Part shown: positions 10,769 through 49,704 of the stretch, in pieces
Position numbering within the stretch: the first letter of the stretch is position 1
Layout: the number at the start of each line of letters is the position of its first letter
Origin: an uncultured Acidimicrobiales bacterium
Lineage (GTDB): Bacteria > Actinomycetota > Acidimicrobiia > Acidimicrobiales > JANYDT01
NCBI GenBank assembly: GCA_963763885.1
Contig: CAVXQD010000003.1
Location: 140,085-204,084, forward strand
Length of the DNA stretch: 64,000 nt
Direction: 5' to 3'
The notes under the pieces: model-generated
Databases searched by the model: none
What the model was told of the DNA's origin: nothing
The model's input: the letters and a program-made list of their open reading frames with translations, nothing else
Position numbers and translations under genes: made by a program

Positions 10769-11884
10769 ATGTTGAGAGATCATGCTGACGCGCTCGTTGC
10801 CGAACGAGCGCGCCTGCGCGAAGCCGAAAACTATTTAGGCTTCGACCGACTCAAGACAGAGTTTGTGCGGCTCGAGACAGAACTGGCCCGACCAGACCTG
10901 TGGGATGACCCCGAGATCGGCCGCAAGGTTGGCGCGCAGTACGCAACCGTGAAGGACGATCTCGAGTCGCTCACCGGTGTGGCCCGTCACCTCGACGACG
11001 CTGACACGCTCCTGGAGCTTGGCACAGAGATGGAAGACGAGTCCCTCGAGCCCGAGCTGCTGGAACATGTTGCAGCGGCTCGCAAGGTGCTGGAAGAACT
11101 CGAGCTGCGCAGCTTGTTTACGGGTGAGTACGACGAGGGCGACGCTATCTTCGAAATCCACTCCGGCGCAGGGGGCGTCGATGCGCAGGACTGGGCCGAA
11201 ATGCTGCTGCGTATGTATGTGCGCTGGGGAGAGCGGCGCGGCTTCGAAGTTGAAATCGAGTCCGTTGCCGAGGGTGCCGAAGCCGGCATCACAACTGCCA
11301 TTCTCATCGTTAAAGGTAGGTACGCATACGGTCTGTTGTCGGCCGAACGTGGTGTGCACCGCCTCGTTCGTATCTCGCCATTCGATCAGCAAGCGCGCAG
11401 ACAAACGTCGTTCGCCGGCGTGTCGCTCACGCCGGTCATCGAGGACGCCACGTCCAAGGTGAACATCGATGAAAAAGACCTCCGCGTCGACGTGTTCCGA
11501 TCATCTGGCGCTGGTGGTCAGCACGTCAACACAACGGACTCGGCCGTTCGTATGACCCACATCCCCACGGGCATCGTTGTCAGCTGCCAGATCGAGCGCA
11601 GCCAGATTCAGAACCGTGCACGGGCGATGGACATGTTGGCGGCGAAACTTATCGAGCGTCAGCGTCAAGAGCGAGACCAGATGATGGCAGACATCACTGG
11701 CCCTCAGAAGGAAGCTGCGTGGGGCAACCAGATCCGCTCCTACGTGCTTGCGCCGTACCAAATGGTCAAGGACCTCCGCACCGAGCACGAGGTTGGTACA
11801 CCTGCCGACGTGCTCGACGGTGACATCGACGGGTTCATTGAATCGTGGCTGCGATGGCGTCGAGCCAACGAGCCCGCGGCGTGA
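10769..11884 (+). CDS. prfB: peptide chain release factor 2
   Basis: RF2-specific SPF motif (RISPFDQQARRQTSFAGV) and GGQ motif (SGAGGQHVNTTDSAVRMTHIPTGIVV). A single uninterrupted 371-codon frame. Confidence 0.93.
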   Translation: MLRDHADALVAERARLREAENYLGFDRLKTEFVRLETELARPDLWDDPEIGRKVGAQYATVKDDLESLTGVARHLDDADTLLELGTEMEDESLEPELLEHVAAARKVLEELELRSLFTGEYDEGDAIFEIHSGAGGVDAQDWAEMLLRMYVRWGERRGFEVEIESVAEGAEAGITTAILIVKGRYAYGLLSAERGVHRLVRISPFDQQARRQTSFAGVSLTPVIEDATSKVNIDEKDLRVDVFRSSGAGGQHVNTTDSAVRMTHIPTGIVVSCQIERSQIQNRARAMDMLAAKLIERQRQERDQMMADITGPQKEAAWGNQIRSYVLAPYQMVKDLRTEHEVGTPADVLDGDIDGFIESWLRWRRANEPAA

Positions 11885-11958
11885 GGGTGCGCCTGTTCGT
11901 GAACGGTCCGAACTAGGGTGCGTGGCGGCGTTCGGCCCACAATGACTAGAGCTTGCCC

Positions 11959-12645
11959 ATGATCCGTCTCGACAACGTCACCAAGGTGTACCGCAACGGT
12001 GCAACGGCTCTCCGTGGAGTGTCCGCCGAAATCGAAAAGGGCGAGTTCGTCTTTCTTGTCGGTTCATCTGGCTCTGGCAAATCGACGTTCATGCGGTTGT
12101 TGCTGCGTGAAGAATTGCCCACAGAGGGCCAGGTTTATGTGGCCGGCAAAAATGTTCCCGAGTTGCCAAAAGGCAAGGTTCCTTACCTTCGCCGCAACAT
12201 CGGTTGCATCTTCCAGGACTTCAAACTGCTGCCCAATAAGACCGTCTACGAAAACGTGTCGTTTGCGCTCGACGTGATCGGCCGTCCGAAGTCGGTTATC
12301 TCGCAGCAGGTTCCGCAGATCTTGGATCTCGTCGGCCTCACCAAGAAGCAAGAAGCTTTCCCCAACGAGCTGTCCGGCGGCGAACAGCAGCGCGTCAGCA
12401 TCGCCCGTGCCTTCATCAACCGGCCGCTCTTGCTGTTGGCCGACGAGCCCACGGGCAACCTCGACCCCAACACGTCAATCGGCATCATGCGACTGCTGGA
12501 GCGCATCAACCGCACCGGCACAACCGTTCTGATGGCTACCCACGATCAGGGCATTGTTGACTCCATGCGTCGCCGGGTGATCGAGCTTGATCGCGGCACG
12601 TTGGTACGTGACCAGGCGCGCGGCGTCTACGGAACCCTGGACTGA
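11959..12645 (+). CDS. ftsE: cell division ATP-binding protein FtsE
   Basis: [11 protein letters not shown]..., Walker [10 protein letters not shown], signature [14 protein letters not shown], Walker [13 protein letters not shown]. Confidence 0.93.
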
Positions 12646-27022: not shown

Positions 27023-27199
27023 TCGGGACGGCGTTGCTTAATGTGACCCACAGTGGCGCGAGCGGGGCGGGTAGTCCCGGTCTGGTCACAGTGGAAACGA
27101 CGGACTTCCATTGTGGCTGGATTGAGACGGACGCTTCTCGTCGGGGCGAACCGACTCCGGACGTGCGATGGGCGCACCTACGGACTACGGTGCGCGGTG

Positions 27200-28063
27200 A
27201 TGACAGGTCCCACGCCCCTGCACGATTACGAGTTCGACCTTCGAGGGTTCCTCGTTTTGCCCGGCGCGCTTGGCGAGGCCGAGGTGGGTGCGCTCAACGC
27301 TGCCTATGACCGGTTCCCGGAGATCGGGACCGGCGAGTGGTACGGAAACGCACAACGCAGGGACTACACAGCCGACACCGGGTTTGAGCTGCACAACCTG
27401 TTGGATTGCGGTGATCCAGCGTTCGACTTGCTGATCGACCATCCCAGCTGGATCCAGCACGTGAACCATTACGCGGGCGAAGAAGGGACGTACGTCCAAG
27501 GTGTGACGATCGACGAGAGCATCGCCACCATTCGGCAATCGGGCGGGCATCACCCTGTTCACTCGGGTGGACACGATGCATCCGTACGTACTCAGTACGC
27601 ATATCGAAACGGGAGGTTCCGCTGTGGCCAGGTCAACGTGTTGTTGGCGTTGACCGACATTGGACCCGGCGACGGTGCAACGATGGTGATTCCGGGAAGC
27701 CACAAGTCCAACCTGCCTCACCCCTTGGCAGGTAGCTATGTTCGGGGCGATCGGATGGATGCGTTGCCGGGGGCGATCGAGTGCCACGTGAAGGCAGGCG
27801 ACGCGTTGCTCTTCGTTGACTCGCTCATGCACGGCGGCTCCAGTCGGACAACGCTTGAGGGGGAGCGGCGTGTGATCATCCTGCGGTATGGGCCGCCGTG
27901 GGCACGTAGCCGCTACGGCTACCAGTGGTCCGACGAGCTGCTCGATCGTCTAACCCCTGATCGGCGAGACATCCTCCAGCCGATGCCGCCGATGGCGCGT
28001 GGGTCGACGCGTATCCCCACCGACATGTTCGTCAAACAGATGGCCGGCAAAAGCGACCAGTAA
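27200..28063 (+). CDS. phytanoyl-CoA dioxygenase (PhyH) family Fe(II)/2OG oxygenase
   Basis: MTGPTPLHDYEFDLRGFLVLPGAL...; metal ligands in HPVHSGGHD and MVIPGSHKSN...LMHGGS. Confidence 0.85.
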   Translation: MTGPTPLHDYEFDLRGFLVLPGALGEAEVGALNAAYDRFPEIGTGEWYGNAQRRDYTADTGFELHNLLDCGDPAFDLLIDHPSWIQHVNHYAGEEGTYVQGVTIDESIATIRQSGGHHPVHSGGHDASVRTQYAYRNGRFRCGQVNVLLALTDIGPGDGATMVIPGSHKSNLPHPLAGSYVRGDRMDALPGAIECHVKAGDALLFVDSLMHGGSSRTTLEGERRVIILRYGPPWARSRYGYQWSDELLDRLTPDRRDILQPMPPMARGSTRIPTDMFVKQMAGKSDQ

Positions 28064-28120
28064 CGCGGACCTGCGTTGCGCTGCCAGCGCGTATCGGGAG
28101 TGCGGTGCGAGAGTGGTGAA

Positions 28121-28528
28121 ATGACGACGCAACCCGATCCAACCGCACTGGCACATCAGACCATGCCCTTCGCCGCTCATCTTGGGATGACGGTCAGCGA
28201 GGCGAGCGCAGAACGGGTGGTCGCCCATCTGGAATGGGCGCCGGAGCGCTGCACGGCTGGCGGGGCGATGCATGGGGGAGCGCTGATGGCGTTGGCCGAT
28301 GCGTCGGGGGCTATGGCTGCCTTTTTCAACCTGCCTGACGGCGCAGCTGGCACCACCACCATCAGCAGCGCAACCAACTTCCTGCGTGGCGTGCGAAGTG
28401 GTTCCGTCACCGCAACCAGCACGTGCCTGCACAAGGGCCGGACCACCATCGTGGTGGATACGGAGTTGCGAGACGACGCAGGCAAGCTGGTCGCCCGAGT
28501 GACACAGACCCAGGCCGTGTTGAGCTAA
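28121..28528 (+). CDS. PaaI-family hotdog thioesterase
   Basis: 135 aa; PFAAHLGMTVSEASAERVVAHLEWAPERCTAGGAMHGGALMALADASG... Confidence 0.85.
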   Translation: MTTQPDPTALAHQTMPFAAHLGMTVSEASAERVVAHLEWAPERCTAGGAMHGGALMALADASGAMAAFFNLPDGAAGTTTISSATNFLRGVRSGSVTATSTCLHKGRTTIVVDTELRDDAGKLVARVTQTQAVLS

Positions 28529-28580: not shown

Positions 28581-28930
28581 GGGGGTGCCTGGTTTCGACC
28601 TTGGTAGTCAACGCAGGTGAAGCGAGCCGTGGTCTCCGGATCCACGTAAAAGAGTCGGAAAACAAACACAAACGCCAACGACAACGTTGCGCTCGCAGCC
28701 TAAATAACTGCGATGTCGGTCTGGCCCCGGTTCCTCGGGCCAGCCGCCGGCACTATCTAGAGGGACTTACTCAGACGCAGTGCTCATGGGCGGCTGAGGA
28801 CATTAAGTGAGCTGGGGCCCTCCGGAGTTGCCGGTGTCGAGGGAGGACCCGAGATCTCTCCACCGGCTGCGCTCGGAGAAGCCCTGCTGCGAAGCTGAGG
28901 GACGGGGGTTCGATTCCCCCCACCTCCACC
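28581..28930 (+). ncRNA. ssrA: transfer-messenger RNA (tmRNA)
   Basis: 5' GGGGGUGCCUGGUUUCGAC pairs with 3' CACCUCC-A-CC, including a G3:U pair. T-arm GGGGGUUCGAUUCCCCC. Internal tag frame ends ...GCC AAC GAC AAC GTT GCG CTC GCA GCC TAA (..ANDNVALAA*, 28674-28703). Confidence 0.9.
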
Positions 28931-28932
28931 GT
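28906..28932 (+). repeat. att core copy 1 (authentic tmRNA T-arm/acceptor 3' end)
   Basis: gggttcgattccccccacctccaccgt; identical 27-mer at 31137-31163, and 24/24 at 38642-38665. Confidence 0.9.
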
Positions 28933-29311: not shown

Positions 29312-30238
29312 CTACAGCAGCTGCCGGAGTTCCTTGACCCGGTCACAGCAGTCGTCGAACGTCGAGCGAGGAGCGCCCGGCCAGACGAGATTCCGCAGAA
29401 CGACCGATTCATACGCATATCGAGCGACTGTGCTCGTTGCCGGATCCCAGGCAGGACTCTGTGCGAAACCTCCTGGGGGACGGTCTGCCGTTGGCATCCC
29501 GGCAGCGCGAGAGTGCTGACAGACCTCGCGAGCGAGCACGTCGACCGGCAGATCGCTGAGCTGTGCGACCACGGTATCGTCACGCAGTAGCCGGTCGATG
29601 TCGTAGTAGTGCCGCGCTGTCACTTCTTTGCGGACGTCATCGCCTTCGCTGGCAGCGTGATGCAGCAACACGAGTTTGTCGACGAGCGTGCGGACTGGAT
29701 CGAGAACAAGAATGCTGACGGGTGTTGCCTCGTCGAAATCGATCGGCAGTTCAACGGATTCCGCGTGCTCGACGATCAGCGACTGCACTGCGAGACGGCG
29801 CTGCGGCAGAGCACCACCCCTGGTACCGATCTCGATGAGGACGCCTGGACGAAGCACGCCAGGCGCCTTGGTGGTCGGGTAGTGCACGATTGCGGTTCGC
29901 TTTTCGCCCTTGGTTGTCGACGAACCATCGACGATCGGTTCAATTCCCGTGGCAGCGGCTGCGCCGGCCATGAACTCCTTCAACGTAGCGTCACGGGATC
30001 CCTTGCCGCCGGCGGGCAGCACAGCTATCAGGTCAACGTCCTCGGAGAATCGTTGAATGAGTCGATGCGCCTTCGACAGACTTGTCCCGCCCTTGAACAC
30101 AATCGAGCAACCGACATTGCGAGATGCGGTAGCAACGCCACGCAACACCTCGGTCACCCAAAAGTCCTTCTCGATGTGGTCAGCCGGAATCCCAGTGAAC
30201 GCCGCTACGCGGCGAAACGTAGACCTCGAACTCGTCAA
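29312..30238 (-). CDS. abiEii: AbiEii/AbiGii nucleotidyltransferase toxin (DUF1814), island 1
   Basis: 308 aa; ...HIEKDFWVTEVLRGVA...SIVFKGGTSLSKAHRLIQRFSEDVDLI... Confidence 0.85.
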   Translation of the reverse strand: MTSSRSTFRRVAAFTGIPADHIEKDFWVTEVLRGVATASRNVGCSIVFKGGTSLSKAHRLIQRFSEDVDLIAVLPAGGKGSRDATLKEFMAGAAAATGIEPIVDGSSTTKGEKRTAIVHYPTTKAPGVLRPGVLIEIGTRGGALPQRRLAVQSLIVEHAESVELPIDFDEATPVSILVLDPVRTLVDKLVLLHHAASEGDDVRKEVTARHYYDIDRLLRDDTVVAQLSDLPVDVLAREVCQHSRAAGMPTADRPPGGFAQSPAWDPATSTVARYAYESVVLRNLVWPGAPRSTFDDCCDRVKELRQLL

Positions 30239-30259
30239 GATCGTCGCGCAAAAGACGGC

Positions 30260-30868
30260 TCACGAGACCGCCCCTTTCTGCAACTGGTCGGCTAGTTCAG
30301 CCCATCGTTCTCGGGTTGCCACATGGTGCTCGCAAGCGACCGACGATGCGATGGTGTTGAGGCGTACCTCTCCGGCGGCGGCGAGTCGGGCGATCGTGGA
30401 CGCCAGTTCGTTCCATGGCTTCTCGATAGATGCTGGACCGCTACGGAGCACTTCGAGTATGGCAACCTCGACCGGCGACAAACCAGCGATTCGGCGCTCG
30501 ATCGACCGAGACACGAAACGAGCCCCTTCTGCCGGAGTCGGAGCGCGACCAGGAACGGCGACGACAGCGACGGACGGCACCTGCGTAGTCAGGCCCAACG
30601 AATGCGCCGCCGACAGCTCAGCCAACCCAGCACCCCGCCCTGCAACCTCCAATGCAACATCAGCGGCCCGCGGCGATGCCATCCCGAACCTCGTCTTAGG
30701 ACCCTTCCAGTACAAACCTTTGCGAACCCGTATTACTCCACCATCAGCTGCGAGCCGAGACAACGCGCATTCAACCGCTCGACGAGAGCCCGGCATGTCG
30801 CCCACCGCGATGAAGGCGCGGAGCGGCGCCAAAGCAACACGCTCACGAACTATCTCAGCCGTACTCAT
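30260..30868 (-). CDS. abiEi: AbiEi-family antitoxin / transcriptional regulator, island 1
   Basis: 202 aa, directly upstream of abiEii on the same strand. wHTH-like ...RAVECALSRLAADGGVIRVRKGLYWKG... and ...AAHSLGLTTQVPS... Confidence 0.8.
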   Translation of the reverse strand: MSTAEIVRERVALAPLRAFIAVGDMPGSRRAVECALSRLAADGGVIRVRKGLYWKGPKTRFGMASPRAADVALEVAGRGAGLAELSAAHSLGLTTQVPSVAVVAVPGRAPTPAEGARFVSRSIERRIAGLSPVEVAILEVLRSGPASIEKPWNELASTIARLAAAGEVRLNTIASSVACEHHVATRERWAELADQLQKGAVS

Positions 30869-31030: not shown

Positions 31031-31136
31031 TTCTCCGGCCTTCAGCGGCCGTGAAAGGTCCTCAACGGCACGACGAAAATGCCCTCTGAGCTGCACCAAC
31101 AGGTTTCTGGCCAGGCAGAACAGAATCGACGCAAGA

Positions 31137-31163
31137 GGGTTCGATTCCCCCCACCTCCACCGT
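31137..31163 (+). repeat. att core copy 2 (island 1 / island 2 junction)
   Basis: 27/27 identity to the tmRNA 3' end. No matching 5' acceptor strand upstream, so it is not a gene. Confidence 0.9.
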
Positions 31164-31165
31164 TT

Positions 31166-31187
31166 GCCCTGGTCAGGGCATGTTTTT
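31166..31187 (+). terminator. displaced tmRNA-type terminator hairpin plus T-run
   Basis: gccctggtcagggc followed by atgttttt. The same hairpin follows att copy 3 at 38671-38692. Confidence 0.55.
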
Positions 31188-31212: not shown

Positions 31213-31374
31213 ATCGCGACAGCGCGGCGACGTTGGATGTTCAGATCCTGGTGCCGGTGACCTGCGCAAATGCTCATCGCCGTGGGCTTCGGGCGTGACG
31301 CACGCTTGACACACCACGACAACGCCCGGTGAAACCAGATGCGGCTGTGGTGCTGAGCCTCCACGCAAGAAAGA

Positions 31375-31393
31375 GGGTCCGATTCCCCCCACC
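31375..31393 (+). repeat. degenerate T-arm-like remnant
   Basis: gggtccgattccccccacc; homologous to 38858-38881 together with the following ..cg[g/a]aattcgc.. flank. Confidence 0.55.
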
Positions 31394-31480
31394 CCGGAAT
31401 TCGCCGAAATCGGCGGAAATGTGCCGGCCAATTTGGCGAGGTTGACGTTGCTGACGACCACGTTCAAGCATGATTGCTGA

Positions 31481-34400
31481 ATGAACGGAGCGCGTGAAGG
31501 GAGCGGAACAAAGCCTGAAGTGGGCACGGTGACGGTGATGTTCACTGACTTGGCGGGGAGTACGGCGATGCGGGCCCGTTTGGGGGAGGAGGCGGCCGAC
31601 GGGCTCCGGGGTGTGCACGACGCGATCCTCGCCGACGCCATCACAACCAACGGCGGACGCGTCGTGAAGCATCTCGGCGACGGATTCATGGCGGCGTTCC
31701 CGAGCGCGGCCGGAGCCGTTGGCGCGGCCGTGGCGTTGCAGCAGGAGATCGATCGGGCCAATCGTCGTGGCGCGACCGAGGCCATGCGGGTTCGTGTTGG
31801 TATCTCGACCGGTGACGTGACCTTCGAAGGCGGCGACTGCTTCGGACTCCCGGTCGTGGAGGCTCAGCGTCTCGAAGCCTCAGCGGAGCCGGGCACGATC
31901 CGATGCGCCGAGATGGTCAAGCTGTTGGCCCGCGGCCGCGGCGGACACGAGTTCGTCTCGCTCGGCGAGCTCGAATTGAAAGGCCTCGCCGAGCCGCTGC
32001 CCGTCTGTGAAATCAGGTGGACACCGCTCGACGACGAAGTCGCGTCGGCGAACGTCGAAGCAGGCCTGCCGCCGGTCTTCGCTCACGCCGGCGGTCTCCC
32101 GTTCTGCGGACGGGCCGAGGTGTTCGATCACCTCGTAGATGCCTGGAAACTATGCGCTGCCGGCGGGTTCGAGACGGTCCTGCTCGCCGGCGAGCCGGGG
32201 ATCGGCAAGACCCGTCTCGCCCAGGAACTCGCGTCACTCGTGCACGGCGGTGCCGGACTCGTGCTCGCCGGTCGGTGCGACGAAGACGTCACCGTGCCAT
32301 TCCAAGCCTTGGGCGCCGCGCTCGATTGGCAGATGAAGCAGACCGCTGCCGACGCCCGCCTCGCCGCACTCGGCGAACATGGCGGTGATCTCGTCCGTCT
32401 CGTGCCTGACCTCGCGAATCGCATTGTCGGCCTCCCTTCCGCGCTCGAAGCCGACGCCGACACCGAGCGCTACCGCCTCTTCCAAGCCGTCCAATCATGG
32501 CTGTCGATCGGCGGCGTTGAGCATCCCCGACTGTTGGTGATCGACGACCTCCACTGGGCCGACAAACCGACCCTGCTGCTCCTCAAGCACCTCATCGCCA
32601 ACCCCGTCGCCGGGCTCATGGTGCTTTGCACCTACCGCGACACCGACGTCGACCGCTCCCACCCTCTGTCGTCGATGCTCGCCGACTTCCGTCGCATGCC
32701 CGCAGTGACCCGCATCGCCGTGGCTGGCCTCGCCGACGACGGTGTGCGTGACCTCCTCGTGCGCATGGGCGGCCACGACCTCGACTCGGCCGGTCTGGAG
32801 TTCGCCGCGCTCGTGCACCGTGAGACGTCAGGCAACCCGTTCTTCGTCGGTGAAGTCCTCCGCCACCTCGCCGAGACCGGCGCGCTCGTCGAACAAGCCG
32901 GGCGGTGGACGAGTTCGCTGCGTCCGGAAGAAGCCGGAATCCCCGAAGGCATCCGTGAAGTCGTCGGCCGACGCCTCAGCCGACTCGGCGAAGACGTCGA
33001 ACAAGTCCTGCGCGCCGCAGCCGTCATCGGCTACGAGTTCGACGTCGACCTCCTCGCGGACGTCATTGGCCGCACCGCCGACGAGGTACTCGACGCGCTC
33101 GACACGGCGCGTGCGGCGAGTCTCGTGATCGAGGTCGGTGTCGACCGGCACCGCTTCGCCCACGCGCTCGTTCGCGAGACCTTGCATGGCGAGTTGTCGG
33201 CCAGCCGACGAGCCCGTCAACACCGGAAGGTCGCCGAGGCTCTCGAAGCACGTCACGCCGGTGATCTCAACACGGTGGTCGCCGACCTTGCCACTCACTG
33301 GGCCGAAGCGTCAGCGGGCGGCGATCCGGGCCGCGCCATCGAGCTCGCCACCCGAGCCGGCGCACAAGCCAATGAACGCGGCGCGTGGGAGAACGCCATC
33401 CGCTGGTACCAGAGCGCGCTCGAACTCATGGAAGATCAGCGCGCATACGATGTTGAACGTCGCCACACGCTCGTCGCGCTTGCCCAGGCCCAGGCCGACG
33501 CCGGAGCGGTCGCCGACGCCCGCGACAACGTCGTCCAAGCGGCTCGGTTGGCCCTCGATGCGGGTGACATCGACACCGCATGCGCCGCTCTCACGGTCAA
33601 GACGCGGGCGAGCTGGGCAGCGAGCGATCCCGCCGACACGGAGAAAGTTGTGCTCCTTCGCGCGGCGTTGGCCACGCCGACGCTCACCGATCCGCAACGC
33701 GCAGACCTGCTGAGCCAACTGGCAACCGAGATGATGTTCGAGGCCGATATCCCGGGCCGGCGTGCAGCAGTCGAGGAGTTCATGAGCGTGCTCCCCGCCG
33801 TCGATGCGCATGTCCACGCACGACTGCTCACGAACGTCGGCGCGTTCGGCGGAGTCCCGTTGCGAAGCAGTCTGGAGTCGCTGGACGCACTGATGGAACT
33901 TGCGCTCGCGGTTGCCCGCCCGGATCAGCGGTTCTGGTTACGTAGCAATCGCTTCTGGATGAACCTGCAACTCGGTCGACGCGATGTCCTCGACGAGTCG
34001 CTCGCTCTTTCCGAGCGACTCGTCGCGAGCGCTCCGAGCCGCGTGCAATGGGTCCCAGCGAACATGGCCACCATGGTCTATGTCCTCGACGGCGACCTCG
34101 CCAGGGCCGACGACGCAGTCGCGGAGATGAGTCGGCTCCTCGAGGGATGGGCCGTGCCAGAGGCTGCGAACTATCGGACGACCACTGGCGTGTCGATCGC
34201 CCGTGAGCGTCGAACTCTCAGCGATCTGTTGTGGCTTGCCGAGGTGATGGAGCAGATGGGCCCGCCGACAAGCGCGGCTCGAACCCTCGCCGCCTTCATC
34301 CGCCTCGCATCAGGTGATGCGGCCGCTGCCGCCGCGGCACTCGGCCTGGTCCGAGTCGACGAGATTGTCGAGGACAACGCCTATGGCGCCGTTGTCGCTC

Positions 34401-34792
34401 TGTGGGGCGAGACGGCCGTCAACGTCGGAACAGACCACCAGTGCAGAGCGCTGGAGGCGGTTCTCGAACCCCTGGCCGACGTACATCTCCTGACCGGCGG
34501 GTTGTACTGCGGCGCGGCAGATCGCGTACGAGGACTCCTGCTCGATCGTCTCGGCGAACACGAGCACGCCGACTCATTGTTCGCCGACGCGGTCCGCCAG
34601 CACGAGGGCCTTCGCTCGCCCACGTGGGTCGCCCGCACCCAGCTCGACTGGACCGATTCGCTCCTGCGCCGCCTCCAGCCTGACCTCGCGCGTACCCACC
34701 TCGACGCCGCCGCCACGGTCCTCGGCGGCCTCGACCTCCCTGACAACCAACTCCGCCTCGCGGAACTCCGCTCCCGGCTCGCTGCCGACTGA
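31481..34792 (+). CDS. class III nucleotide cyclase domain - STAND/AAA P-loop NTPase - TPR-like repeat protein (no C-terminal HTH)
   Basis: 1103 aa. Cyclase: VTVMFTDLAGSTAMRARLGEE...VKHLGDGFMAAF...RVRVGISTGDVTFEGGDCFGLPVVEAQRLEA. NTPase: Walker A LLAGEPGIGKTRL, Walker B RLLVIDDLHWADKPT. About 650 aa of helical repeats follow. Ends ...LRLAELRSRLAAD. Confidence 0.85.
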   Translation: MNGAREGSGTKPEVGTVTVMFTDLAGSTAMRARLGEEAADGLRGVHDAILADAITTNGGRVVKHLGDGFMAAFPSAAGAVGAAVALQQEIDRANRRGATEAMRVRVGISTGDVTFEGGDCFGLPVVEAQRLEASAEPGTIRCAEMVKLLARGRGGHEFVSLGELELKGLAEPLPVCEIRWTPLDDEVASANVEAGLPPVFAHAGGLPFCGRAEVFDHLVDAWKLCAAGGFETVLLAGEPGIGKTRLAQELASLVHGGAGLVLAGRCDEDVTVPFQALGAALDWQMKQTAADARLAALGEHGGDLVRLVPDLANRIVGLPSALEADADTERYRLFQAVQSWLSIGGVEHPRLLVIDDLHWADKPTLLLLKHLIANPVAGLMVLCTYRDTDVDRSHPLSSMLADFRRMPAVTRIAVAGLADDGVRDLLVRMGGHDLDSAGLEFAALVHRETSGNPFFVGEVLRHLAETGALVEQAGRWTSSLRPEEAGIPEGIREVVGRRLSRLGEDVEQVLRAAAVIGYEFDVDLLADVIGRTADEVLDALDTARAASLVIEVGVDRHRFAHALVRETLHGELSASRRARQHRKVAEALEARHAGDLNTVVADLATHWAEASAGGDPGRAIELATRAGAQANERGAWENAIRWYQSALELMEDQRAYDVERRHTLVALAQAQADAGAVADARDNVVQAARLALDAGDIDTACAALTVKTRASWAASDPADTEKVVLLRAALATPTLTDPQRADLLSQLATEMMFEADIPGRRAAVEEFMSVLPAVDAHVHARLLTNVGAFGGVPLRSSLESLDALMELALAVARPDQRFWLRSNRFWMNLQLGRRDVLDESLALSERLVASAPSRVQWVPANMATMVYVLDGDLARADDAVAEMSRLLEGWAVPEAANYRTTTGVSIARERRTLSDLLWLAEVMEQMGPPTSAARTLAAFIRLASGDAAAAAAALGLVRVDEIVEDNAYGAVVALWGETAVNVGTDHQCRALEAVLEPLADVHLLTGGLYCGAADRVRGLLLDRLGEHEHADSLFADAVRQHEGLRSPTWVARTQLDWTDSLLRRLQPDLARTHLDAAATVLGGLDLPDNQLRLAELRSRLAAD

Positions 34793-34956: not shown

Positions 34957-34973
34957 GGAAGAATCACATATTG

Positions 34974-35759
34974 ATGACACGTGCAGACTTCTCCGCGTTG
35001 TGGGATCAGTTGCTGTCCGAGGGCGTGAACACTGTCACGATCGACGAGGTCGAGTCGCGAACGGGAGCAACCCGCAACGCGGTGTACCTCGGCGTCAAGT
35101 ATGCGATGGACCGCAAACGGCTGTTCTCGCCCGCGCGCGGCTTCTACGTGATCGTGCCGCCCGAGTACCGGGCGGCTGGTGTGGTGCCAGCGACCCACTT
35201 CATCGACCCGATGATGAACCATCTCGGCATCGAGTACTACCTCGGTCTCGCGACCGCTGCAGGCTGGTGGGGATCGTCGCACCACGCGTCACAAGAATTC
35301 CAAGTCATCGCGAACGGACGACTACCGGACCGGACTATCGGCAAGGTGCGACTGCGCTTCATCAGCCGGGCCAGGCTCGACGACAAGGCAATTCGTCGTG
35401 TCGCAGGGCCACGAACGATGCTCAACGTGTCGACTCCCGACCTCACGGCCGTTGACCTCGCCGCCGACCCCGCGCATGTTGGCGGACTGTCCAATGTCGC
35501 GACCATCCTCGCCGAGCTCCCGGACCTCGACGGCCACGGCATCGCCACTCTTGCGAAACATCGCACCCGAGCTGACGCTCGACGTCTCGGTTGGCTCCTG
35601 TCACTCGTTCGCAACGACCTAAACCTACGTGCACTTATGAAAGTCGCTGACCCGCACCATGGACAGCCGACACTCATGGCATCGAACAAGCCACGAACCG
35701 GCCAGGTCGACAATGACTGGAACGTGCTCGTGAACACGAACGTCGAAGCCGACCTGTGA
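34974..35759 (+). CDS. abiEi: AbiEi-family antitoxin, island 2 (copy 2)
   Basis: MTRADFSALWDQLLSEG...ARGFYVIVPPEYRAAGVVPATHFIDPMMNHLGIEYYLGL...GGLSNVATILAEL.... Paralog of 37081..37893. Confidence 0.85.
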   Translation: MTRADFSALWDQLLSEGVNTVTIDEVESRTGATRNAVYLGVKYAMDRKRLFSPARGFYVIVPPEYRAAGVVPATHFIDPMMNHLGIEYYLGLATAAGWWGSSHHASQEFQVIANGRLPDRTIGKVRLRFISRARLDDKAIRRVAGPRTMLNVSTPDLTAVDLAADPAHVGGLSNVATILAELPDLDGHGIATLAKHRTRADARRLGWLLSLVRNDLNLRALMKVADPHHGQPTLMASNKPRTGQVDNDWNVLVNTNVEADL

Positions 35760-36204
35760 TCTCTCCGAACGCCCTTACCGCCTGGAGAACGACGCACCCC
35801 TGGGCCGACGACGAGCAGGTCGAACAAGACCTGATCATGACGCGAGTCGCGATCGAAATCGCCAACGATCCGCATCTCGGCAACGTCTTGGCGTGGCGCG
35901 GCGGAACATGTCTGCACAAACTGTTCGTCCCGTCGGCTGCAGGTACAGCGAAGACCTCGACCACATCGCATACGGCCTGTCGGTCAAGAACAACGACATG
36001 CGCCAGCTCTGCGCTGCCTCCTCGGCACTCATGAGCCTGACCGTGCTGACTCGCTCCGCGCGGAGGAGATCGAAAGACTCCCGCAATGTGGCCCGGCCAT
36101 GGCCAGCCTTGGCACAAACGTCGTCGTGTGGCTCGCCGTGTCCGTCGTCGGCCAGCGCCCGCTCGTCGACCAGGTGCGGAACCGATCGCGCCGCCACAGA
36201 CTGA
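35756..36204 (+). pseudogene. abiEii: AbiEii toxin remnant (frameshifted and truncated)
   Basis: GTGA overlap with abiEi. The N-terminus ...EQDLIMTRVAIEIANDPHLGNVLAWRGGTCLHKLFVP loses frame near 35940. RYSEDLDH continues in another frame, then similarity is lost. Runs into the 3' end of the convergent abiEii. The 3' limit is approximate. Confidence 0.6.
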
Positions 36205-36285
36205 GCCAGCTTCGTCGGGAGAAGAACCGCTCCGTCTGCACGGCAGTCGCCGCCTGCCCCAAGCACTGGATCGACGCTTCCGCCG

Positions 36286-37084
36286 TCACGGAGTCGCGCC
36301 GTCGAGCGCTTCGATCGCTTCGAGCACGGCCCGGGCGGCGACCGCGCCACTGTTGATCTGGTAGCCCGCAGGCCATTGGGCGACGAGCAGTTCGAGATCT
36401 GTGGTGAACGTCGCATCTTGCAGCTTCGCGGTGAGGTTGTCGTGGGCGCGGGTGATCGTCCATCCGGCTGGTCGGTACGGGCTGAAGCACTGGGCGATAG
36501 CGGCTGGTGTGACGCCTGCGTGTTCGACGGGCAAGCCAGAGGTCGAACAAGTCGCGTCCTTTGCTGCGTTGGAACAACGCGCGGATCTTGGTGGCGGTAA
36601 GTTCTTCGATCGTAAAGGTCGCCACGTCGGCTGAGCCGGTGAACCACGGGCTATCGACTGCGAATAAGCGCGTGACGGTTGGCTGGGCAGGTGAACGTTC
36701 GAAGGTGTTCATTTCCACTTTGATCTGCAAGCGTTGGCCGCTGAGGAATGTGGAGCGCAGTCGGGCTTTGGGGTGTCGGCCGATCTCGGCGCGGACGTCA
36801 TCGAAACCAACGAAGCGTGCGACGTCGCGGATTGCGTCGAGCACGTCGCCGACACCACCTTCGCTGCGCCGGACGTAATCGAGGTCTTCGCTGTACCGCC
36901 ACGGCCGATCGAGCCACAGTTTATGAAAGCACGTACCTCCGCGGAAGACGAGATCGCTGCCGAGGAGCGGGTGGTTGGCGAACTCGATGATCAACCGCGA
37001 CAGCACGAGGTCTTGTTCAACGTTCTCGGGGCTGGTCCACGGGACCTGTGTGCGCCAGTGGGCGATGTCGGCTTGGGTGATCAC
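36286..37084 (-). pseudogene. abiEii: AbiEii toxin with a single frameshift in a C3/G3 run
   Basis: MITQADIAHWRTQVPWTSPENVEQDLVLSRLIIEFANHPLLGSDLVFRGGTCFHKLWLDRPWRYSEDLDYV...RDLFDLWLA then shifts. The family-like tail VEHAGVTPAAIAQCFSPYRPAGW...EALDGATP* is in the -1 frame (ORF 36286..36534). The extra base lies in ggg 36529-36531. Confidence 0.75.
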
Positions 37085-37893
37085 AGGTCGTGCTCGATTC
37101 GGGTGTTGATCTGGACTCGCCAGCGGTCATCCCGGTCGATCGATGGCGGCCGACCGGTGGCCAGCGGCGTCACATCGGCTTGGTCGACAAGCTGTGCGAG
37201 TCCGTCGAGATCAATCGTGGTGCCGGTCTCATTCGCCATGAACTCGATCAGATGGCCGGCGCGTTGCACGGCGGCAACCGGCCGCAACCTGGCTGCGTCG
37301 ACCAGAGCTTGCGGAACGAGGCGGCCCTCGACGAGAAGGTCACCAATCACGGTGGCGACGTTGGATAGCCCTCCACCGGCACGGGGAAAGCTGACGAGAT
37401 CGAACACCGTCGCAACAGCGGCCGACACGGTGACTCGTCCGGTTGGGACATTGGTTTGTTCGCACTGCGTTTCTTCGGTGTTGGATCGTTGGATGAACTG
37501 GATGCGACCGCCACCGATCTGCCGGTCGCGTAACCGGGCCGGCGTTACGACTTGGAGGACCATCGCCGCTTGATGCGACGCACCGTGGATTGCTGCGGCG
37601 GAGAGGAACCCGACATAGTACGGGTGGCCGAGGTGGCGCATCATGGGGTCGATGAAGTGGATCGGCGGCGGCGCGCCAGCGGCACGGTATTCAGGCGGGA
37701 CCGGCACCCACGCGCCTTTGGTGACCGAAATGAGTTTCCCGGCCTCCCGGGCGCGTTGCAGGCTGTTCGACACCACGTCCGTGCCAATGCCGAGGAGCGC
37801 GGCAACCTCGGCAGTCTCGATGTAATGACGACCGCGGCTCATCAGCCAGTCCGCCAGTTCGCTCGGAGTGATCGTGGCCGTTCTCACCGGCAC
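37081..37893 (-). CDS. abiEi: AbiEi-family antitoxin, island 2 (copy 3)
   Basis: 270 aa; ...KGAWVPVPPEYRAAGAPPPIHFIDPMMRHLGHPYYVGFLSAAAIHG...GGLSNVATVIGDL.... GTGA overlap with the downstream abiEii. Confidence 0.85.
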   Translation of the reverse strand: MPVRTATITPSELADWLMSRGRHYIETAEVAALLGIGTDVVSNSLQRAREAGKLISVTKGAWVPVPPEYRAAGAPPPIHFIDPMMRHLGHPYYVGFLSAAAIHGASHQAAMVLQVVTPARLRDRQIGGGRIQFIQRSNTEETQCEQTNVPTGRVTVSAAVATVFDLVSFPRAGGGLSNVATVIGDLLVEGRLVPQALVDAARLRPVAAVQRAGHLIEFMANETGTTIDLDGLAQLVDQADVTPLATGRPPSIDRDDRWRVQINTRIEHDL

Positions 37894-38532: not shown

Positions 38533-38641
38533 AGTTCTCCAGCTTCCAGGGGACTCGAAAGGCATCGACGGGAACGACCAGAAACATGCTCTGACCAGGT
38601 GAAACACCCGCTGAGCAGCGAAAAGGCAAACGAGAACATGC

Positions 38642-38665
38642 GGGTTCGATTCCCCCCACCTCCAC
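38642..38665 (+). repeat. att core copy 3 (island 2 / island 3 junction)
   Basis: gggttcgattccccccacctccac, 24/24 identity to the tmRNA 3' end. The following ~50 nt are homologous to 31164-31216. Confidence 0.9.
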
Positions 38666-38670
38666 TATTT

Positions 38671-38692
38671 GCCCTGGTCAGGGCATGCTTTT
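38671..38692 (+). terminator. second copy of the tmRNA-type terminator hairpin
   Basis: gccctggtcagggc followed by atgctttt. Confidence 0.5.
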
Positions 38693-39854: not shown

Positions 39855-39974
39855 CCCGCTGCCAACGGCTAGGCCGATTACACGGCGGCTCGGTCACTGG
39901 CCGAGGAGTAGCCCTCCGGACAGCGGCGGCGGTTTACTGCTCGACGTTGTTCGGTTCGATGGCTTCGGGAGGCG

Positions 39975-41144
39975 TTGCAGATAACCGAGGTTCCCGATGT
40001 TCGACGCGCCGATCTTTTGTCTGCGTTGGCCACCGAGCTGATCTTCGAAAACGACGTCCCGGGCCGGAAACGAGCCGTGGACGCGCTCTGGGAGATCTTT
40101 CCTTCGTTGCCTCCCGAGGACTGCGCCCGACTACTGCAGAACGTCGCTGCGTTCGGCATGGTCTTCTCAATGGACCGGCTCGACCTCATCTGCCTTCACC
40201 TGGACCGTGCGGTGCAGGTCGCTAAAGCGGATCAGCTGCGCATGTTGCAGATGAACCGATTCATGCGGCATCTCCAACGGGGCAACCGTGATCAGGTCGA
40301 CGAAGCCTTTCATGCCGCTGAGCAGCTGATGGCGAAACAGACAGGCCGTTGGCAATGGCTCCCGCACATGCTTGCGACGATCCGCTGTGTTGTGGACGGG
40401 GACCTCGCTGCCGCAGCAGGGGCCCGGAAGGTCGCGTCGGGACTACTGCGTACGCTGGATGTTCCGGAGGCGGAGAACTACAGCGTCACGATGCCAATCA
40501 TGATCGGTCGCGAACAGCGATCGCTCGGAACGCTGCTCCGCTATGCCGAGGCGATGGAGACGGTGGGGTCAGCTTCCGGTCCGCCTCGGGCACTCGCTGC
40601 ATTCATCCGGTTTGCGTCCGGCGATCTGGAATCCCCTCGCCGCGCATTGGACCTCGTCCGCGTAGAGGAGTTCGCCGACGATGCCGGCCATGCCGTCGTC
40701 GTCGCGCTGTGGAGCGAGATGGCCAGCACGCTCGGATCCGACGCACAACGGCGTGCCTTCATGGAGGCCCTGGAGATGGAAGCTGGCGTACACCTACTTG
40801 CCGGCGGGATCTACCTCGGCGCTGCGGATCGCCTGCGCGCGCTGCTACTCGATCGCCTCGGCGAGCACGAGCAGGCCGACACGCTGTTCGGAAACGCAGT
40901 CCGCCAGCATGAAGACCTCCGCTCGCCCACCTGGGTCGCGCGCACCCAACTCGACTGGGCCGAGGCGCTCCTGCGCCGAAGTTCGATGGCTGAGGCGCGG
41001 GCCCACCTTGAAGCCGCCGCTGGAGCGCTCGGCGACCTCGACCTCCCCGACAACCAGCTCCGCCTCGCTGAACTCCGAGCGGGGTCAGCAAAACCCGGTG
41101 TAGCCGCTTGTGACCTCGGTTCCATAGACTCCAGTCATGAGTGA
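39975..41144 (+). pseudogene. 5'-truncated paralog of the cyclase-STAND-TPR gene (C-terminal repeat region only)
   Basis: 389 codons, colinear with residues ~715-1103 of 31481..34792 (ADLLSALATELIFENDVPGRKRAV vs ADLLSQLATEMMFEADIPGRRAAV; LRSPTWVARTQLDW and DLPDNQLRLAELR shared). No cyclase or P-loop part. Only a TTG start is available. Confidence 0.7.
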
Positions 41145-41688
41145 CGCTGCCGTTGCCCCGATGGACGAAGAAGAGTTCGTCGCGTTCGAACTCGCCAGCC
41201 CCGAACGCCACGAATTCGTCGACGGCGTGATCCGGGCTATGACCGGGGCGTCGATCCGCCACAACGACGTCGCCCTGAACTTGGCGATGGCCTTGCGTGC
41301 CGCGGCGAAGGGCACCCGGTGCAAGGTGAACATCGAGGGGGTGCGCCTCAAGGTCAACAGCCGCCGGCATTACTACCCCGACGTGATGGTCAGCTGTGAG
41401 GAGCCCAACGACACCCACTCCCAATCGGCCCCGTGCCTTATCGCCGAGGTCCTCTCGCCCACCACCTCGTCGATCGACCGTGGTGAGAAGCGCATTTCGT
41501 ACATGGCGTTGCCATCGCTCCGTCACCTTTTGCTCATCGACCTCGAGGCCGGCAACATCGAGCATCAGTGGCGCGCCAACAGCGACGACGCCTGGTTCTT
41601 CGAAATCGGCATCCCCGGCGCCACGCTCCACCTGACGTGTCCGCAAGCGGCATTAATCAGCGTGGACGACATCCTCGTCGAAGCCTGA
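41137..41688 (+). CDS. Uma2-family (DUF820) restriction-endonuclease-fold protein
   Basis: 183 aa; ERHEFVDGVIRAM...HNDVALNL...YYPDVMVSCE...PCLIAEVLSPTTSSIDRGEKRISYMALPSLRHLLLID. 8-nt overlap with the preceding ORF. Confidence 0.85.
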   Translation: MSDAAVAPMDEEEFVAFELASPERHEFVDGVIRAMTGASIRHNDVALNLAMALRAAAKGTRCKVNIEGVRLKVNSRRHYYPDVMVSCEEPNDTHSQSAPCLIAEVLSPTTSSIDRGEKRISYMALPSLRHLLLIDLEAGNIEHQWRANSDDAWFFEIGIPGATLHLTCPQAALISVDDILVEA

Positions 41689-48156: not shown

Positions 48157-48495
48157 GGAACCAAGGTACCTCCAGACAGCCGCTCGGTGAACCCGTGCCT
48201 GAACGCGTACCTAGAACGTTGATCCCTCGCTTCCAGCGCTGCGTTACAAGCGGGGCTGCGGTTTGGCCGGAGCGTCAGCGCTGGTGGTCCCGATTCAGAA
48301 GACGTCGGCCAGGTCTGACCGTGTCGGAAACAAGCGGGTCTGCCGGGACCATGGCTCCCGTGTTTTACGGGTGTCTGGGTCTTGTTGTGGTTGCAGCGTG
48401 TTGTGGCTGGTCACAGGGTTGTTTGTGGGGGAGATGGGGTGATCACTGGTTGTGATCACGAACACCAGTTCGATCAGTCGGTGTATACTTTCTGT

Positions 48496-49704
48496 ATGGA
48501 CGCGGCGTTGGTGGACATCACGGAAGGGTTGGGTGAGGGGTTCGCCCGGTTGATGTTGTACGTGTCTGAACATGTTCTGTGTGCTGATGATGTGGTTGCT
48601 GTTCGACGGCTTGTTGATACTGCGGAGTTGGTGTGTACGCGTACGGTCGCGAAGTTTGCGAAGGAGGCTGAGTTTCGTGAGTTGGGGTTCCGCGATATTG
48701 GTTCGTGGATGGCTGCGAAGACTGGTTCGCGTCGCACGGAGGGTCATGCTCGGTGTGAGCAGGCGAAGTTGTTGGAGGATTTGCCTGAGGTTGCTGCTGC
48801 GGTGTTGGCTGGGACGTTCAGTGCTGCGCATCTCAGGTGCTTGTCGGCGAGCGTGTCCAGGAAGCGTCTCCCGTTGGCGCAGCGTGATCAGCATGTGTTT
48901 GTGAACGCAGCGGTGTGGTTGGACGCGTCACTGTTTTCACAGTTGGTCCAGCGTTGGGTTGCTCTTGCGGATGACGAGTTGTGTGATCCCAGCCAGCCTG
49001 GGAAGGAGGACGGCCAGTTCGATGCGCGCCGGTTGCAGTTGACGTTGATGTTGGATGGGATGTGGCGGCTGAATGGCGTGTTTGACCCGGTCGCGGGTGA
49101 AGCCATCCAGGCGGTCCTTGCGGCTGTCACCCCGGCACCGTCCAAAGACGATCCGCGGACGCCAGCCCAACGTCGTGCTGACGGGTTCATTGAGTGGTGC
49201 AATTCGTTCCTTGCAGAGCAGGACCGTGTGCATCTGGGGAACGAACGCCCCAATGTGAACGTGGTGTTCCACACGGCGGACGGTTCCGCGCATACCACCG
49301 GCGGCCATTTCCTGCGGAATTGGCAGTTGGGTCAGGTGATGTGCGACGCAACGTTCACCGCTGTGGCTGCGACGTTGACAGGCCGACCCTTCGATGTGGG
49401 CACCCCGTTACGGGCGATCCCGGCAAGGAACCGCAAAGCAGTTGTCGTGAGGGACCGGTGTTGCCGGTTCCCGCATTGTGGCCGGCCGGCGAGGTGGTGT
49501 GAGATCCACCACATCCTGGAACGTGAGAACGGTGGAGCCCATGAGCTTCCAAATCTTGTTCTTCTGTGTGCTTATCATCACCGTGAAGTCCACCGGCAAG
49601 GCATCAAACTCGCCTGGGACGGCCCCACGCTGACAGCCCGGCTGCCCAACGGCACCCTGTTACACGGCCCCCCACACCCCACCACAAAACCAACGTTGCT
49701 CTAA
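48496..49704 (+). CDS. DUF222 / HNH endonuclease family protein (13E12-type)
   Basis: C-terminal HNH: RDRCCRFPHCGRPARWCEIHHILERENGGAHELPNLVLLCAYHHREVH. Start set at ATG 48496. Confidence 0.85.
   Translation: MDAALVDITEGLGEGFARLMLYVSEHVLCADDVVAVRRLVDTAELVCTRTVAKFAKEAEFRELGFRDIGSWMAAKTGSRRTEGHARCEQAKLLEDLPEVAAAVLAGTFSAAHLRCLSASVSRKRLPLAQRDQHVFVNAAVWLDASLFSQLVQRWVALADDELCDPSQPGKEDGQFDARRLQLTLMLDGMWRLNGVFDPVAGEAIQAVLAAVTPAPSKDDPRTPAQRRADGFIEWCNSFLAEQDRVHLGNERPNVNVVFHTADGSAHTTGGHFLRNWQLGQVMCDATFTAVAATLTGRPFDVGTPLRAIPARNRKAVVVRDRCCRFPHCGRPARWCEIHHILERENGGAHELPNLVLLCAYHHREVHRQGIKLAWDGPTLTARLPNGTLLHGPPHPTTKPTLL

Follow-up and report, generated by a model that had tools for sequence, protein, structure and literature searches.

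Genes that join an N-terminal effector to a STAND (signal transduction ATPase with numerous domains) core and a repeat sensor invite an antiviral interpretation, particularly when they lie among abortive-infection genes. Does one in which the effector is a nucleotidyl cyclase belong to immunity, or is it a signalling enzyme that has come to reside in a mobile island? The question is raised by the gene at 31481–34792 of a 64-kb stretch of DNA, here called the window, from an uncultured Acidimicrobiales bacterium (GenBank assembly GCA_963763885.1, contig CAVXQD010000003.1). An initial annotation had proposed an Avs-like antiviral sensor with a cyclase output. Our analysis makes it likely that the product is a soluble adenylyl cyclase of the STAND type, gated by a ligand, and one of many paralogues in the Ilumatobacteraceae; a defence role for the island-borne copy is unsupported.

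A complete gene with an intact cyclase domain

The gene is a complete open reading frame (ORF) of 1,103 amino acids (aa), with a G+C content at third codon positions of 0.78 and a C-terminal end that reads LRLAELRSRLAAD. Every motif quoted in the initial annotation is present, starting at aa 21 (FTDLAGST), 63 (KHLGDGFM), 105 (RVGISTGDV), 237 (GEPGIGKTRL) and 351 (LLVIDDLHWAD). The product matches the database protein P0001 and a 1,103-aa cluster member, P0267, at 100%. The public call of P0001, at 1,074 aa, begins at Met30 and thereby loses the first β-strand and the invariant metal-binding Asp23 (window 31481–31570). This start is probably mis-annotated, the longer one being backed by P0267 and by the alignment of homologues.

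The N-terminal class III cyclase domain is beyond the curated Pfam threshold (Guanylate_cyc, PF00211, over aa 13–168; 45.7 bits against a cutoff of 21.9, E = 7e-12), and the corresponding part of the structure model adopts the cyclase fold. The closest solved protein is Ma1120 of Mycobacterium avium, both by sequence (E = 5e-23) and by structure (template-modelling (TM) score 0.89 at ~2 Å; Foldseek); the structural matches as a group, which also include Rv1900c and 3mr7, have TM scores of 0.83–0.90 at ~2–3 Å root-mean-square deviation. Alignment identifies D23 and D67 as the metal-binding residues, K63 and D119 as the pair that specifies ATP and R130 as the transition-state arginine, with V126 at the position of the canonical transition-state Asn. 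K63, D119, V126 and R130 pair with K101, D157, A164 and R168 of Ma1120.

We assessed conservation in 110 full-length homologues of 42–79% identity (111 aligned sequences including the query). K63, D119 and R130 are invariant in the 110 homologues and D67 in 111/111 aligned sequences, and D23 is kept in 108/111, the other three being gapped at that column. Because the metal Asp pair, the ATP-specifying Lys/Asp pair and the Arg are invariant across homologues, we predict ATP as the substrate and, from the Lys63/Asp119 pair, cyclic AMP (cAMP) as the product.

One residue departs from the canonical pattern. The N-x-x-x-R motif reads V-E-A-Q-R, as the initial annotation had noticed, with Val126 at the Asn position and Arg130 kept; it had taken this as a hint of non-canonical chemistry or of a domain that serves as a sensor. 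The position is Val or Ile in all 110 homologues, within a conserved VVEAQRLE motif. Ma1120, an active enzyme, also lacks the usual Asn, having Ala164 in its place and a conserved Arg168, and an A164N substitution drastically reduces its adenylyl cyclase activity (PMC4215837). A missing Asn therefore excludes neither membership nor activity, and with the remaining catalytic residues invariant the deviation looks like a conserved trait of an active subfamily and is no evidence of decay or unusual chemistry.

The same valine is the natural starting point for a different explanation, in which the cyclase domain is a pseudo-enzyme without catalytic activity, retained only for nucleotide binding or dimerisation, and the protein acts as a scaffold or an ATPase; inactive cyclase domains have been reported in some conflict-system proteins (PMC7159879). 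The invariant metal, substrate and transition-state residues and the strong conservation of VVEAQRLE speak against this, as does the drastic loss of activity when Asn is introduced into Ma1120. In addition, genes for proteins that bind cyclic nucleoside monophosphates (cNMPs) cluster beside family members, as described below, and this speaks for actual synthesis of a cyclic nucleotide. We consider a dead domain very improbable.

A STAND core and a solenoid without a DNA-binding domain

The P-loop NTPase with Walker A and Walker B motifs is equally firm. The Pfam family AAA_16 covers aa 207–374 at 82.7 bits (cutoff 32.6; E = 5.5e-23), and NACHT and tetratricopeptide-repeat (TPR) matches by sequence are sub-threshold. 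Walker A (GEPGIGKT, aa 237–244), Walker B (LLVIDD, aa 351–356) and GNPFF (aa 451–455) are invariant in homologues, as are F559 and H561 in the winged-helix region; GNPFF would be the motif of the helical domain (HD) and F559/H561 that of the winged-helix domain (WHD).

An AlphaFold2 (AF2) model built from a 32-sequence alignment has a mean predicted local distance difference test score (pLDDT) of 84, with the helical region mostly above 85–90. In this model aa ~562–1102 form an all-α solenoid of helical repeats. The top Foldseek match in the Protein Data Bank (PDB) is 6mfv, the STAND–TPR protein PH0952 (E = 4e-13), and Apaf-1 (3shf) and SAMD9 were also matched. The effector–STAND–repeat layout first proposed is correct and now has structural backing: as modelled, the arm and the repeat sensor come after a core of nucleotide-binding domain (NBD), HD and WHD, the order that defines a STAND protein. 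By sequence, no solved STAND protein was detectable in direct and family-profile searches of the NTPase and helical region against PDB sequences.

The helical-repeat region held up with a qualification. The C-terminal 403 aa, modelled alone (pLDDT 93.6, predicted TM score 0.92), match TPR superhelices only, among them LGN, APC/C subunits, Ski3, Rap proteins and MalT domain III, although TPR families do not reach threshold by sequence. The solenoid spans ~540 aa. The absence of a C-terminal LuxR-type helix–turn–helix (HTH) was borne out, both by Pfam, which finds no LuxR/GerE domain, and by the models of the whole protein and of the C-terminal 403 aa, which contain no HTH or DNA-binding fold. 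A cryptic C-terminal DNA-binding domain, a possibility that the initial annotation had raised, was looked for in these models and not found; the C-terminal model is a pure TPR solenoid.

These results bear on whether the gene is a decaying transcription regulator of the LAL or Rv0386 type, its DNA-binding domain cryptic or lost. The order of cyclase, MalT-like ATPase and TPR is indeed that of Rv0386, a 1,085-aa class IIIc adenylyl cyclase that ends in a LuxR HTH (10.1101/2024.03.06.583649). However, GerE is absent from the query and from all of the 120 homology-search matches listed, the C terminus folds confidently as a solenoid, and throughout the clade the conserved, full-length protein lacks the HTH, at ~1,040–1,200 aa in long representatives; loss by decay is rejected on that account. 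The regulator explanation is largely refuted, and we give it almost no credence.

A large family with a fast-evolving C-terminal module

The gene belongs to a large paralogous family expanded in the Ilumatobacteraceae (Acidimicrobiia). A homology search that scored 8,000 candidates found 7,224 proteins at E ≤ 1e-10; among the 120 matches listed, nearly all are ~1,100 aa long with a cyclase and AAA_16, and the named ones are from Ilumatobacteraceae. A scan of species-representative genomes found close relatives, some of them partial, at 26 loci (49–79% identity; loci are numbered with the prefix L). Their hosts are exclusively Acidimicrobiia or unclassified Actinomycetota metagenome-assembled genomes (MAGs), mostly Ilumatobacteraceae, several of which carry at least two family copies. 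Orthologues with 76–79% identity occupy eight Acidimicrobiia MAG loci (L001–L007 and L010).

Conservation is uneven along the protein. Identity to the closest homologue is 90% in the cyclase, 89% in the NBD, 94% in the HD/WHD and 84% in the arm, and falls to 58% over aa 761–1103. An exhaustive search with this last module found 523 representative clusters. Because its matches are always C-terminal and every one of the long proteins measures 1,040–1,200 aa, the module appears to be specific to the family and not shuffled among other effector types.

Relatives in ordinary contexts beside cNMP-binding genes

Most of the ~30 homologue loci lie in ordinary surroundings. The uvrB–uvrA region is the stable position of one ortholog group (L019, L021, L023, L051–53, L057 and L058), usually alongside a gene for a TrkA-type K+ channel and sometimes also a two-component system. 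An Abhydrolase_10 gene is conserved downstream in most of the group with 76–79% identity, and further contexts are metabolic, TetR and similar. Surroundings rich in mobile genetic elements or toxin–antitoxin (TA) genes were seen only in the window, at L004, which has an AbiEi gene, and at L049, a region rich in transposase, resolvase, PIN-Phd and integrase genes.

The neighbours themselves point to cyclic-nucleotide signalling. Among 135 ORFs within 5 kb of family members at 21 loci, cNMP_binding is the commonest Pfam family, with 11 members. As a control, a six-frame scan of 25 loci placed nine cNMP-binding matches within 2.5 kb, three at 2.5–5 kb and none in the 178 kb that lie at 5–10 kb. 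The partner domains of these proteins include neuropathy target esterase (NTE)/patatin, ABC ATPase, major facilitator superfamily (MFS) transporter and P450. At four loci (L013, L017, L020 and L055), tandem or single family genes are followed by a gene with two cNMP-binding domains and an NTE–patatin phospholipase domain, and by FtsX/ABC components. The phospholipase gene, on the same strand, comes directly after the tandem pair in L013 and L020, where the N-terminal ~600 aa of the pair are ~73% identical to the query, and after two genes in L055. The combination of tandem pair, cNMP-patatin and FtsX/ABC looks like a conserved cAMP-signalling cassette.

Some details of these loci deserve mention. 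The tandem pairs (L013:8271–16712, L020:8251–17132 and L055:4705–16197) have divergent C-terminal modules; several L013 and L020 genes appear frameshifted, for which long-read assembly errors are a possible cause. Fusions of an N-terminal cNMP-binding domain to cytochrome P450, 580 aa long, lie 2–3 kb upstream of the cyclase gene at L005:2898–4637 and L006:3460–5199 (both on the reverse strand), cNMP-binding–ABC ATPase fusions occur in L013 and L026, and L017 has a cNMP-binding–MFS transporter fusion; such joining of a cNMP-binding domain to an enzyme or transporter is unusual. At L056 the family member has a giant, divergently oriented paralogue of 2,560 aa as a neighbour (L056:220–7902, reverse strand), which combines Guanylate_cyc, a double zinc ribbon (DZR), a SnoaL-like domain and AAA_16, and a DUF222 gene directly downstream (11422–12615).

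A proposed mechanism and its precedents

The product, the ligand and activation through oligomerisation we infer as follows. At rest, the TPR-like sensor and the arm would keep the nucleotide-binding module closed on ADP. Binding of a ligand or protein to the fast-evolving C-terminal solenoid would lift this autoinhibition, ADP would be exchanged for ATP and the NTPase modules would multimerise. Class III cyclases need head-to-tail dimers for catalysis, and multimerisation would pair the single N-terminal cyclase domains into such homodimers, which would make cAMP by means of the Lys63/Asp119 pair. The cAMP would then be read by cNMP-binding proteins, which in relatives are encoded next door; candidate readers there are the cNMP-NTE/patatin lipases, cNMP-ABC ATPases, the cNMP-MFS transporter, the cNMP-P450 fusions and small cNMP-binding proteins. 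The window copy is probably a horizontally moved or duplicated paralogue that feeds the general cAMP network of the cell. Autoinhibition and multimerisation of a STAND–TPR protein are established for MalT and PH0952 (PMC6468293), and by analogy we presume that the mechanism is common to this protein. The NBD–HD–WHD–arm–TPR architecture is shared with both, 6mfv being the best structural match and MalT domain III matching the sensor; the effector differs, as it is an N-terminal cyclase here and there is no DNA-binding domain.

The protein is a member of a known cyclase–STAND–TPR kind: it corresponds to Rv0386 minus the HTH and has an analogue in full-length mammalian soluble adenylyl cyclase. 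With the actinobacterial proteins Rv0386, Rv1358 and Rv2488c of Mycobacterium tuberculosis it shares the order of class III cyclase, AAA_16/MalT-type P-loop NTPase and TPR, as well as a similar size, and its cyclase is of the same mycobacterial-type subfamily as Ma1120 and Rv1900c. Three features set it apart from the Rv0386 type. First, that type has a C-terminal LuxR/GerE HTH, whereas here the cyclase is the sole output. Second, the C-terminal 340 aa form a family-specific solenoid. Third, the substrate pair is Lys/Asp, where the mycobacterial enzyme is reported to have Gln/Asn. Ma1120 (PDB 4wp3, 4wp8 and 4wp9) shows the same Lys/Asp/Arg pattern with a small or hydrophobic residue at the Asn position, Ala in place of our Val, but its solved constructs (157–210 residues) comprise the cyclase domain only and have no STAND or TPR part.

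Full-length mammalian soluble adenylyl cyclase (sAC; ADCY10, sACfl) seems to follow a comparable general logic, with a cyclase under the control of a STAND module. Behind its cyclase catalytic region come a predicted STAND P-loop domain and a C-terminal regulatory region, and tested nucleotides had no distinguishing effect on it (PMC12802110). Its catalytic unit is a tandem C1–C2 intramolecular pseudo-heterodimer, whereas the single domain described here must homodimerise. Among NCBIfam models the best match is TIGR03903, the TOMM kinase/cyclase fusion, which has the cyclase–AAA_16–helical core in common: aa 36–667 align to model positions 311–936. We rejected membership in that family, as the score of 191.1 bits is below the cutoff of 705.75 and the protein lacks the kinase part with which the model begins N-terminally.

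If the gene does encode a STAND-type adenylyl cyclase, then HTH-less cyclase–STAND–TPR proteins are a large, multi-copy cAMP-signalling family in Acidimicrobiia, with the receptors next door. How such a cyclase is gated by its STAND module is a question that extends to full-length mammalian sAC. A compact, homodimeric bacterial version with clear receptor partners (cNMP-patatin and cNMP-ABC) would offer a tractable model of such an enzyme.

The island remnants at the tmRNA gene

The window copy lies near a transfer-messenger RNA (tmRNA) gene, ssrA, which is the attachment site of the islands (Table 1). To judge by three copies of the tmRNA 3′ end, at 31128–31163, 31366–31401 and 38633–38668, it follows an att-like repeat as the first gene, within degenerate ssrA island remnants arrayed in tandem. 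The initial annotation was right on both this position and the AbiE modules on either side. The first copy matches the tmRNA 3′ end (28897–28932) at 89% and is followed by a hairpin and a T-run at 31165–31180, a copied ssrA terminator. A 56-nt block at the third copy is 91% identical to 31132–31187, and the sequences downstream of these two copies are mutually homologous. The islands are old remnants; no integrase was found among the island ORFs scanned with Pfam. An Rfam scan of 28–42 kb found the tmRNA only, and a scan for promoters and terminators found nothing beyond the copied ssrA terminator.

Table 1. Features of the window and sites of repair-gene cross-matches at homologue loci
Feature	Position	Strand	Basis
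Cyclase–STAND–TPR gene, 1,103 aa	31481–34792	+	ORF, database match, orthologues
Class III nucleotidyl cyclase catalytic domain (predicted), aa 13–168	31517–31984	+	Pfam PF00211 (7e-12), Ma1120 match
STAND nucleotide-binding oligomerisation module, aa ~207–560	32099–33160	+	AAA_16 (5.5e-23), invariant motifs, Foldseek
Arm and TPR-like α-solenoid, aa ~562–1103, presumed sensor	33164–34789	+	AF2 model, Foldseek
Fast-evolving, family-specific C-terminal module, aa 761–1103	33761–34789	+	Identity drop, cluster search, AF2
tmRNA gene (ssrA), attachment site of the islands	28581–28931	+	ARAGORN; Rfam RF00023, 157.7 bits
AbiEii (29312–30238) and AbiEi (30260–30868), upstream TA/abortive-infection pair	29312–30868	−	Pfam AbiEii 7e-29; PADLOC AbiEii 8e-50, AbiEi 5e-47
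att-like copy of tmRNA 3′ end with terminator hairpin, 294 nt upstream of the gene	31128–31187	+
Second, degenerate att-like copy, 80 nt upstream of the gene	31366–31401	+	67% match to tmRNA 3′ end
Orphan AbiEi antitoxin gene, downstream after a 178-nt gap	34971–35759	+	Pfam AbiEi_1 1.5e-26; PADLOC AbiEi 6e-67
Second AbiE pair: AbiEii (36029–37084) and AbiEi (37081–37893)	36029–37893	−	Pfam, PADLOC
Third att-like copy, opening the next island remnant	38633–38692	+	38633–38668, 75% match to tmRNA 3′ end
5′-truncated copy of a second cyclase–STAND gene, C-terminal module only	39912–41144	+	tblastn, frame analysis
Uma2 gene	41137–41688
Uvr cross-match sites	L023:14249–16300; L019:3037–5169; L021:5368–7497		PADLOC

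The att-like core GGTTCGATTCCCCCCACC is absent from all homologue loci and none of the homologues lies near a tmRNA gene, so the ssrA-island location is specific to this genome. Only L004 shares flanking DNA with the window. Its AbiEi gene (L004:13322–14082) is 87% identical at the nucleotide level to the orphan AbiEi gene downstream of our gene, compared with 77% for the cyclase gene, which suggests that AbiEi arrived, by acquisition or exchange, later than the cyclase gene. The L004 AbiEi gene appears frameshifted.

The initial annotation had placed a diverged paralogue at the equivalent position in the next island. What is there is a 5′-truncated, C-terminal fragment with neither cyclase nor NTPase: the tblastn match (39963–41081, in an ORF at 39975–41144) covers only aa 726–1098 of our gene, at 53% identity, an extent that corresponds to the fast-evolving C-terminal module. 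The fragment is closer to genes of other MAGs (60–68%) than to its neighbour in the window. An in-frame stop at 39911 shortly precedes its reading frame, which stays open for 389 aa and has an altered C-terminal tail and an 8-nt overlap with the start of the Uma2 gene. Cyclase and NBD remnants were sought upstream of 39975, yielding only insignificant, out-of-order high-scoring segment pairs, and on these grounds we rejected a frameshifted full-length pseudogene. The truncated copy may be a relic, or else a stand-alone sensor-like protein.

Weighing a role in defence

Could the protein nevertheless be an Avs- or NLR-like antiviral sensor? In such a system the solenoid would detect a phage protein, the core would oligomerise, and the cyclase would give a nucleotide alarm or deplete ATP, with a cNMP-dependent effector, for instance the patatin lipase found in relatives, aborting infection. 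Besides the effector–STAND–repeat layout, the position of the gene at the head of an ssrA island remnant between AbiE modules would fit, with the truncated second copy as cargo of the next island, as would the AbiEi neighbour at L004 and the mobile-element- and TA-rich surroundings of L049. The tandem, divergent sensors upstream of a cNMP-binding patatin at L013, L020 and L055 formally resemble the logic of Pycsar or CBASS. Cyclases that make cNMPs are also known in predicted conflict systems, where they are described in other architectures (PMC7159879).

Several points weigh against a general signalling enzyme of the adenylyl cyclase type. The copy sits, as a defence gene might, on a mobile island that also carries two AbiE pairs, an orphan AbiEi and a Uma2 gene. 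The sensor module is unusually quick to change, diverging much faster than the rest of the protein, as would be expected of a defence gene too. No cNMP-binding ORF was found in the 64-kb window with a home-made hidden Markov model of limited sensitivity. The neighbourhood sample of ~30 MAG loci includes several that are orthologous and hence non-independent.

Other results stand against a defence role. PADLOC finds no Avs, NLR-type or other STAND defence model in the protein, returning only weak matches to PycC, PDC-S73 and the IetA P-loop; the PycC match is partial and generic (E = 4e-7, aa 12–115 only). Like Avs, the protein has an effector at its N terminus, a STAND core and a TPR-like sensor at its C terminus, and yet it matches no PADLOC Avs model. 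Pycsar pairs a class III-like cyclase, pyrimidine-specific (cCMP or cUMP) in the PycC family, with cNMP-binding effectors, whereas here the residues are of the purine (ATP) type, as the likeness to Ma1120 would also suggest, and no cNMP effector adjoins the cyclase in the window; a downstream cNMP-patatin is present at some homologue loci. The Lys/Asp pair predicts cAMP, a housekeeping messenger, and the cNMP-binding neighbours of relatives include transporters and P450s. The main text of a 2026 systematic STAND survey makes no mention of cyclase effectors.

The distribution of the family also tells against a defence role. Most homologue loci are non-defence, including the stably syntenic uvrB–uvrA ortholog group, and the lineage-restricted, multi-copy pattern looks like expansion, unlike the promiscuous horizontal transfer typical of Avs. 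Nor is the sensor module common to other effector types. Enrichment of HTH-less homologues beside defence genes, for which the initial annotation had proposed a test, was not found among the 135 neighbour ORFs, in a comparison made with no formal background statistic; apart from one frameshifted AbiEi and a few PIN proteins, no neighbour there is a true defence or TA gene. We therefore find the Avs-like proposal unsupported and regard an antiviral sensor as unlikely.

Two sets of PADLOC matches among the neighbours could have suggested otherwise and were discarded. PycTIR or 'TIR effector' matches, which PADLOC ranked highest, are explained most simply by the cNMP-binding domain: the members scanned carry cNMP_binding and patatin, and TIR does not feature among the 25 commonest Pfam families of the neighbour ORFs. 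Matches to mad3, mad8, AriA, PbeA and GajB are actually cross-matches to repair proteins: mad3, mad8 and AriA to UvrA (E down to 2.5e-88), PbeA, together with mREase_IV and DinG, to UvrB, and GajB to UvrD. Single-protein PADLOC matches near housekeeping repair genes can thus mimic defence enrichment.

A bolder form of the defence proposal would see in the island copy, and perhaps also in the tandem and cNMP-patatin clusters of relatives, a new NLR-like immune module that is STAND-controlled and Pycsar-like, in which diversifying TPR sensors act through an oligomerisation-activated cyclase on a cNMP-gated phospholipase or other effector. The truncated, sensor-only copy could then be left over from sensor exchange or serve as a reservoir for it. 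We hold this to be quite improbable. Were a defence role true, bacterial NLR-like immunity would gain a class of effectors that produce a second messenger. If, on the other hand, the gene is a STAND-type adenylyl cyclase in the cAMP network, the locus illustrates that an effector–STAND–TPR arrangement in an island is insufficient to call a defence gene.

Surroundings of the islands

The rest of the 64-kb window is ordinary chromosome, with genes for SecA, AdoHcy hydrolase, an acyl-CoA ligase and similar proteins. The tmRNA gene is preceded by genes for a PhyH-family dioxygenase and a thioesterase (27053–28528), and smpB was not seen beside it among the ORFs scanned. Beyond the islands, at 48382–49704 on the forward strand, lies a gene for a DUF222-HNH endonuclease, a family typical of actinobacterial mobile elements.

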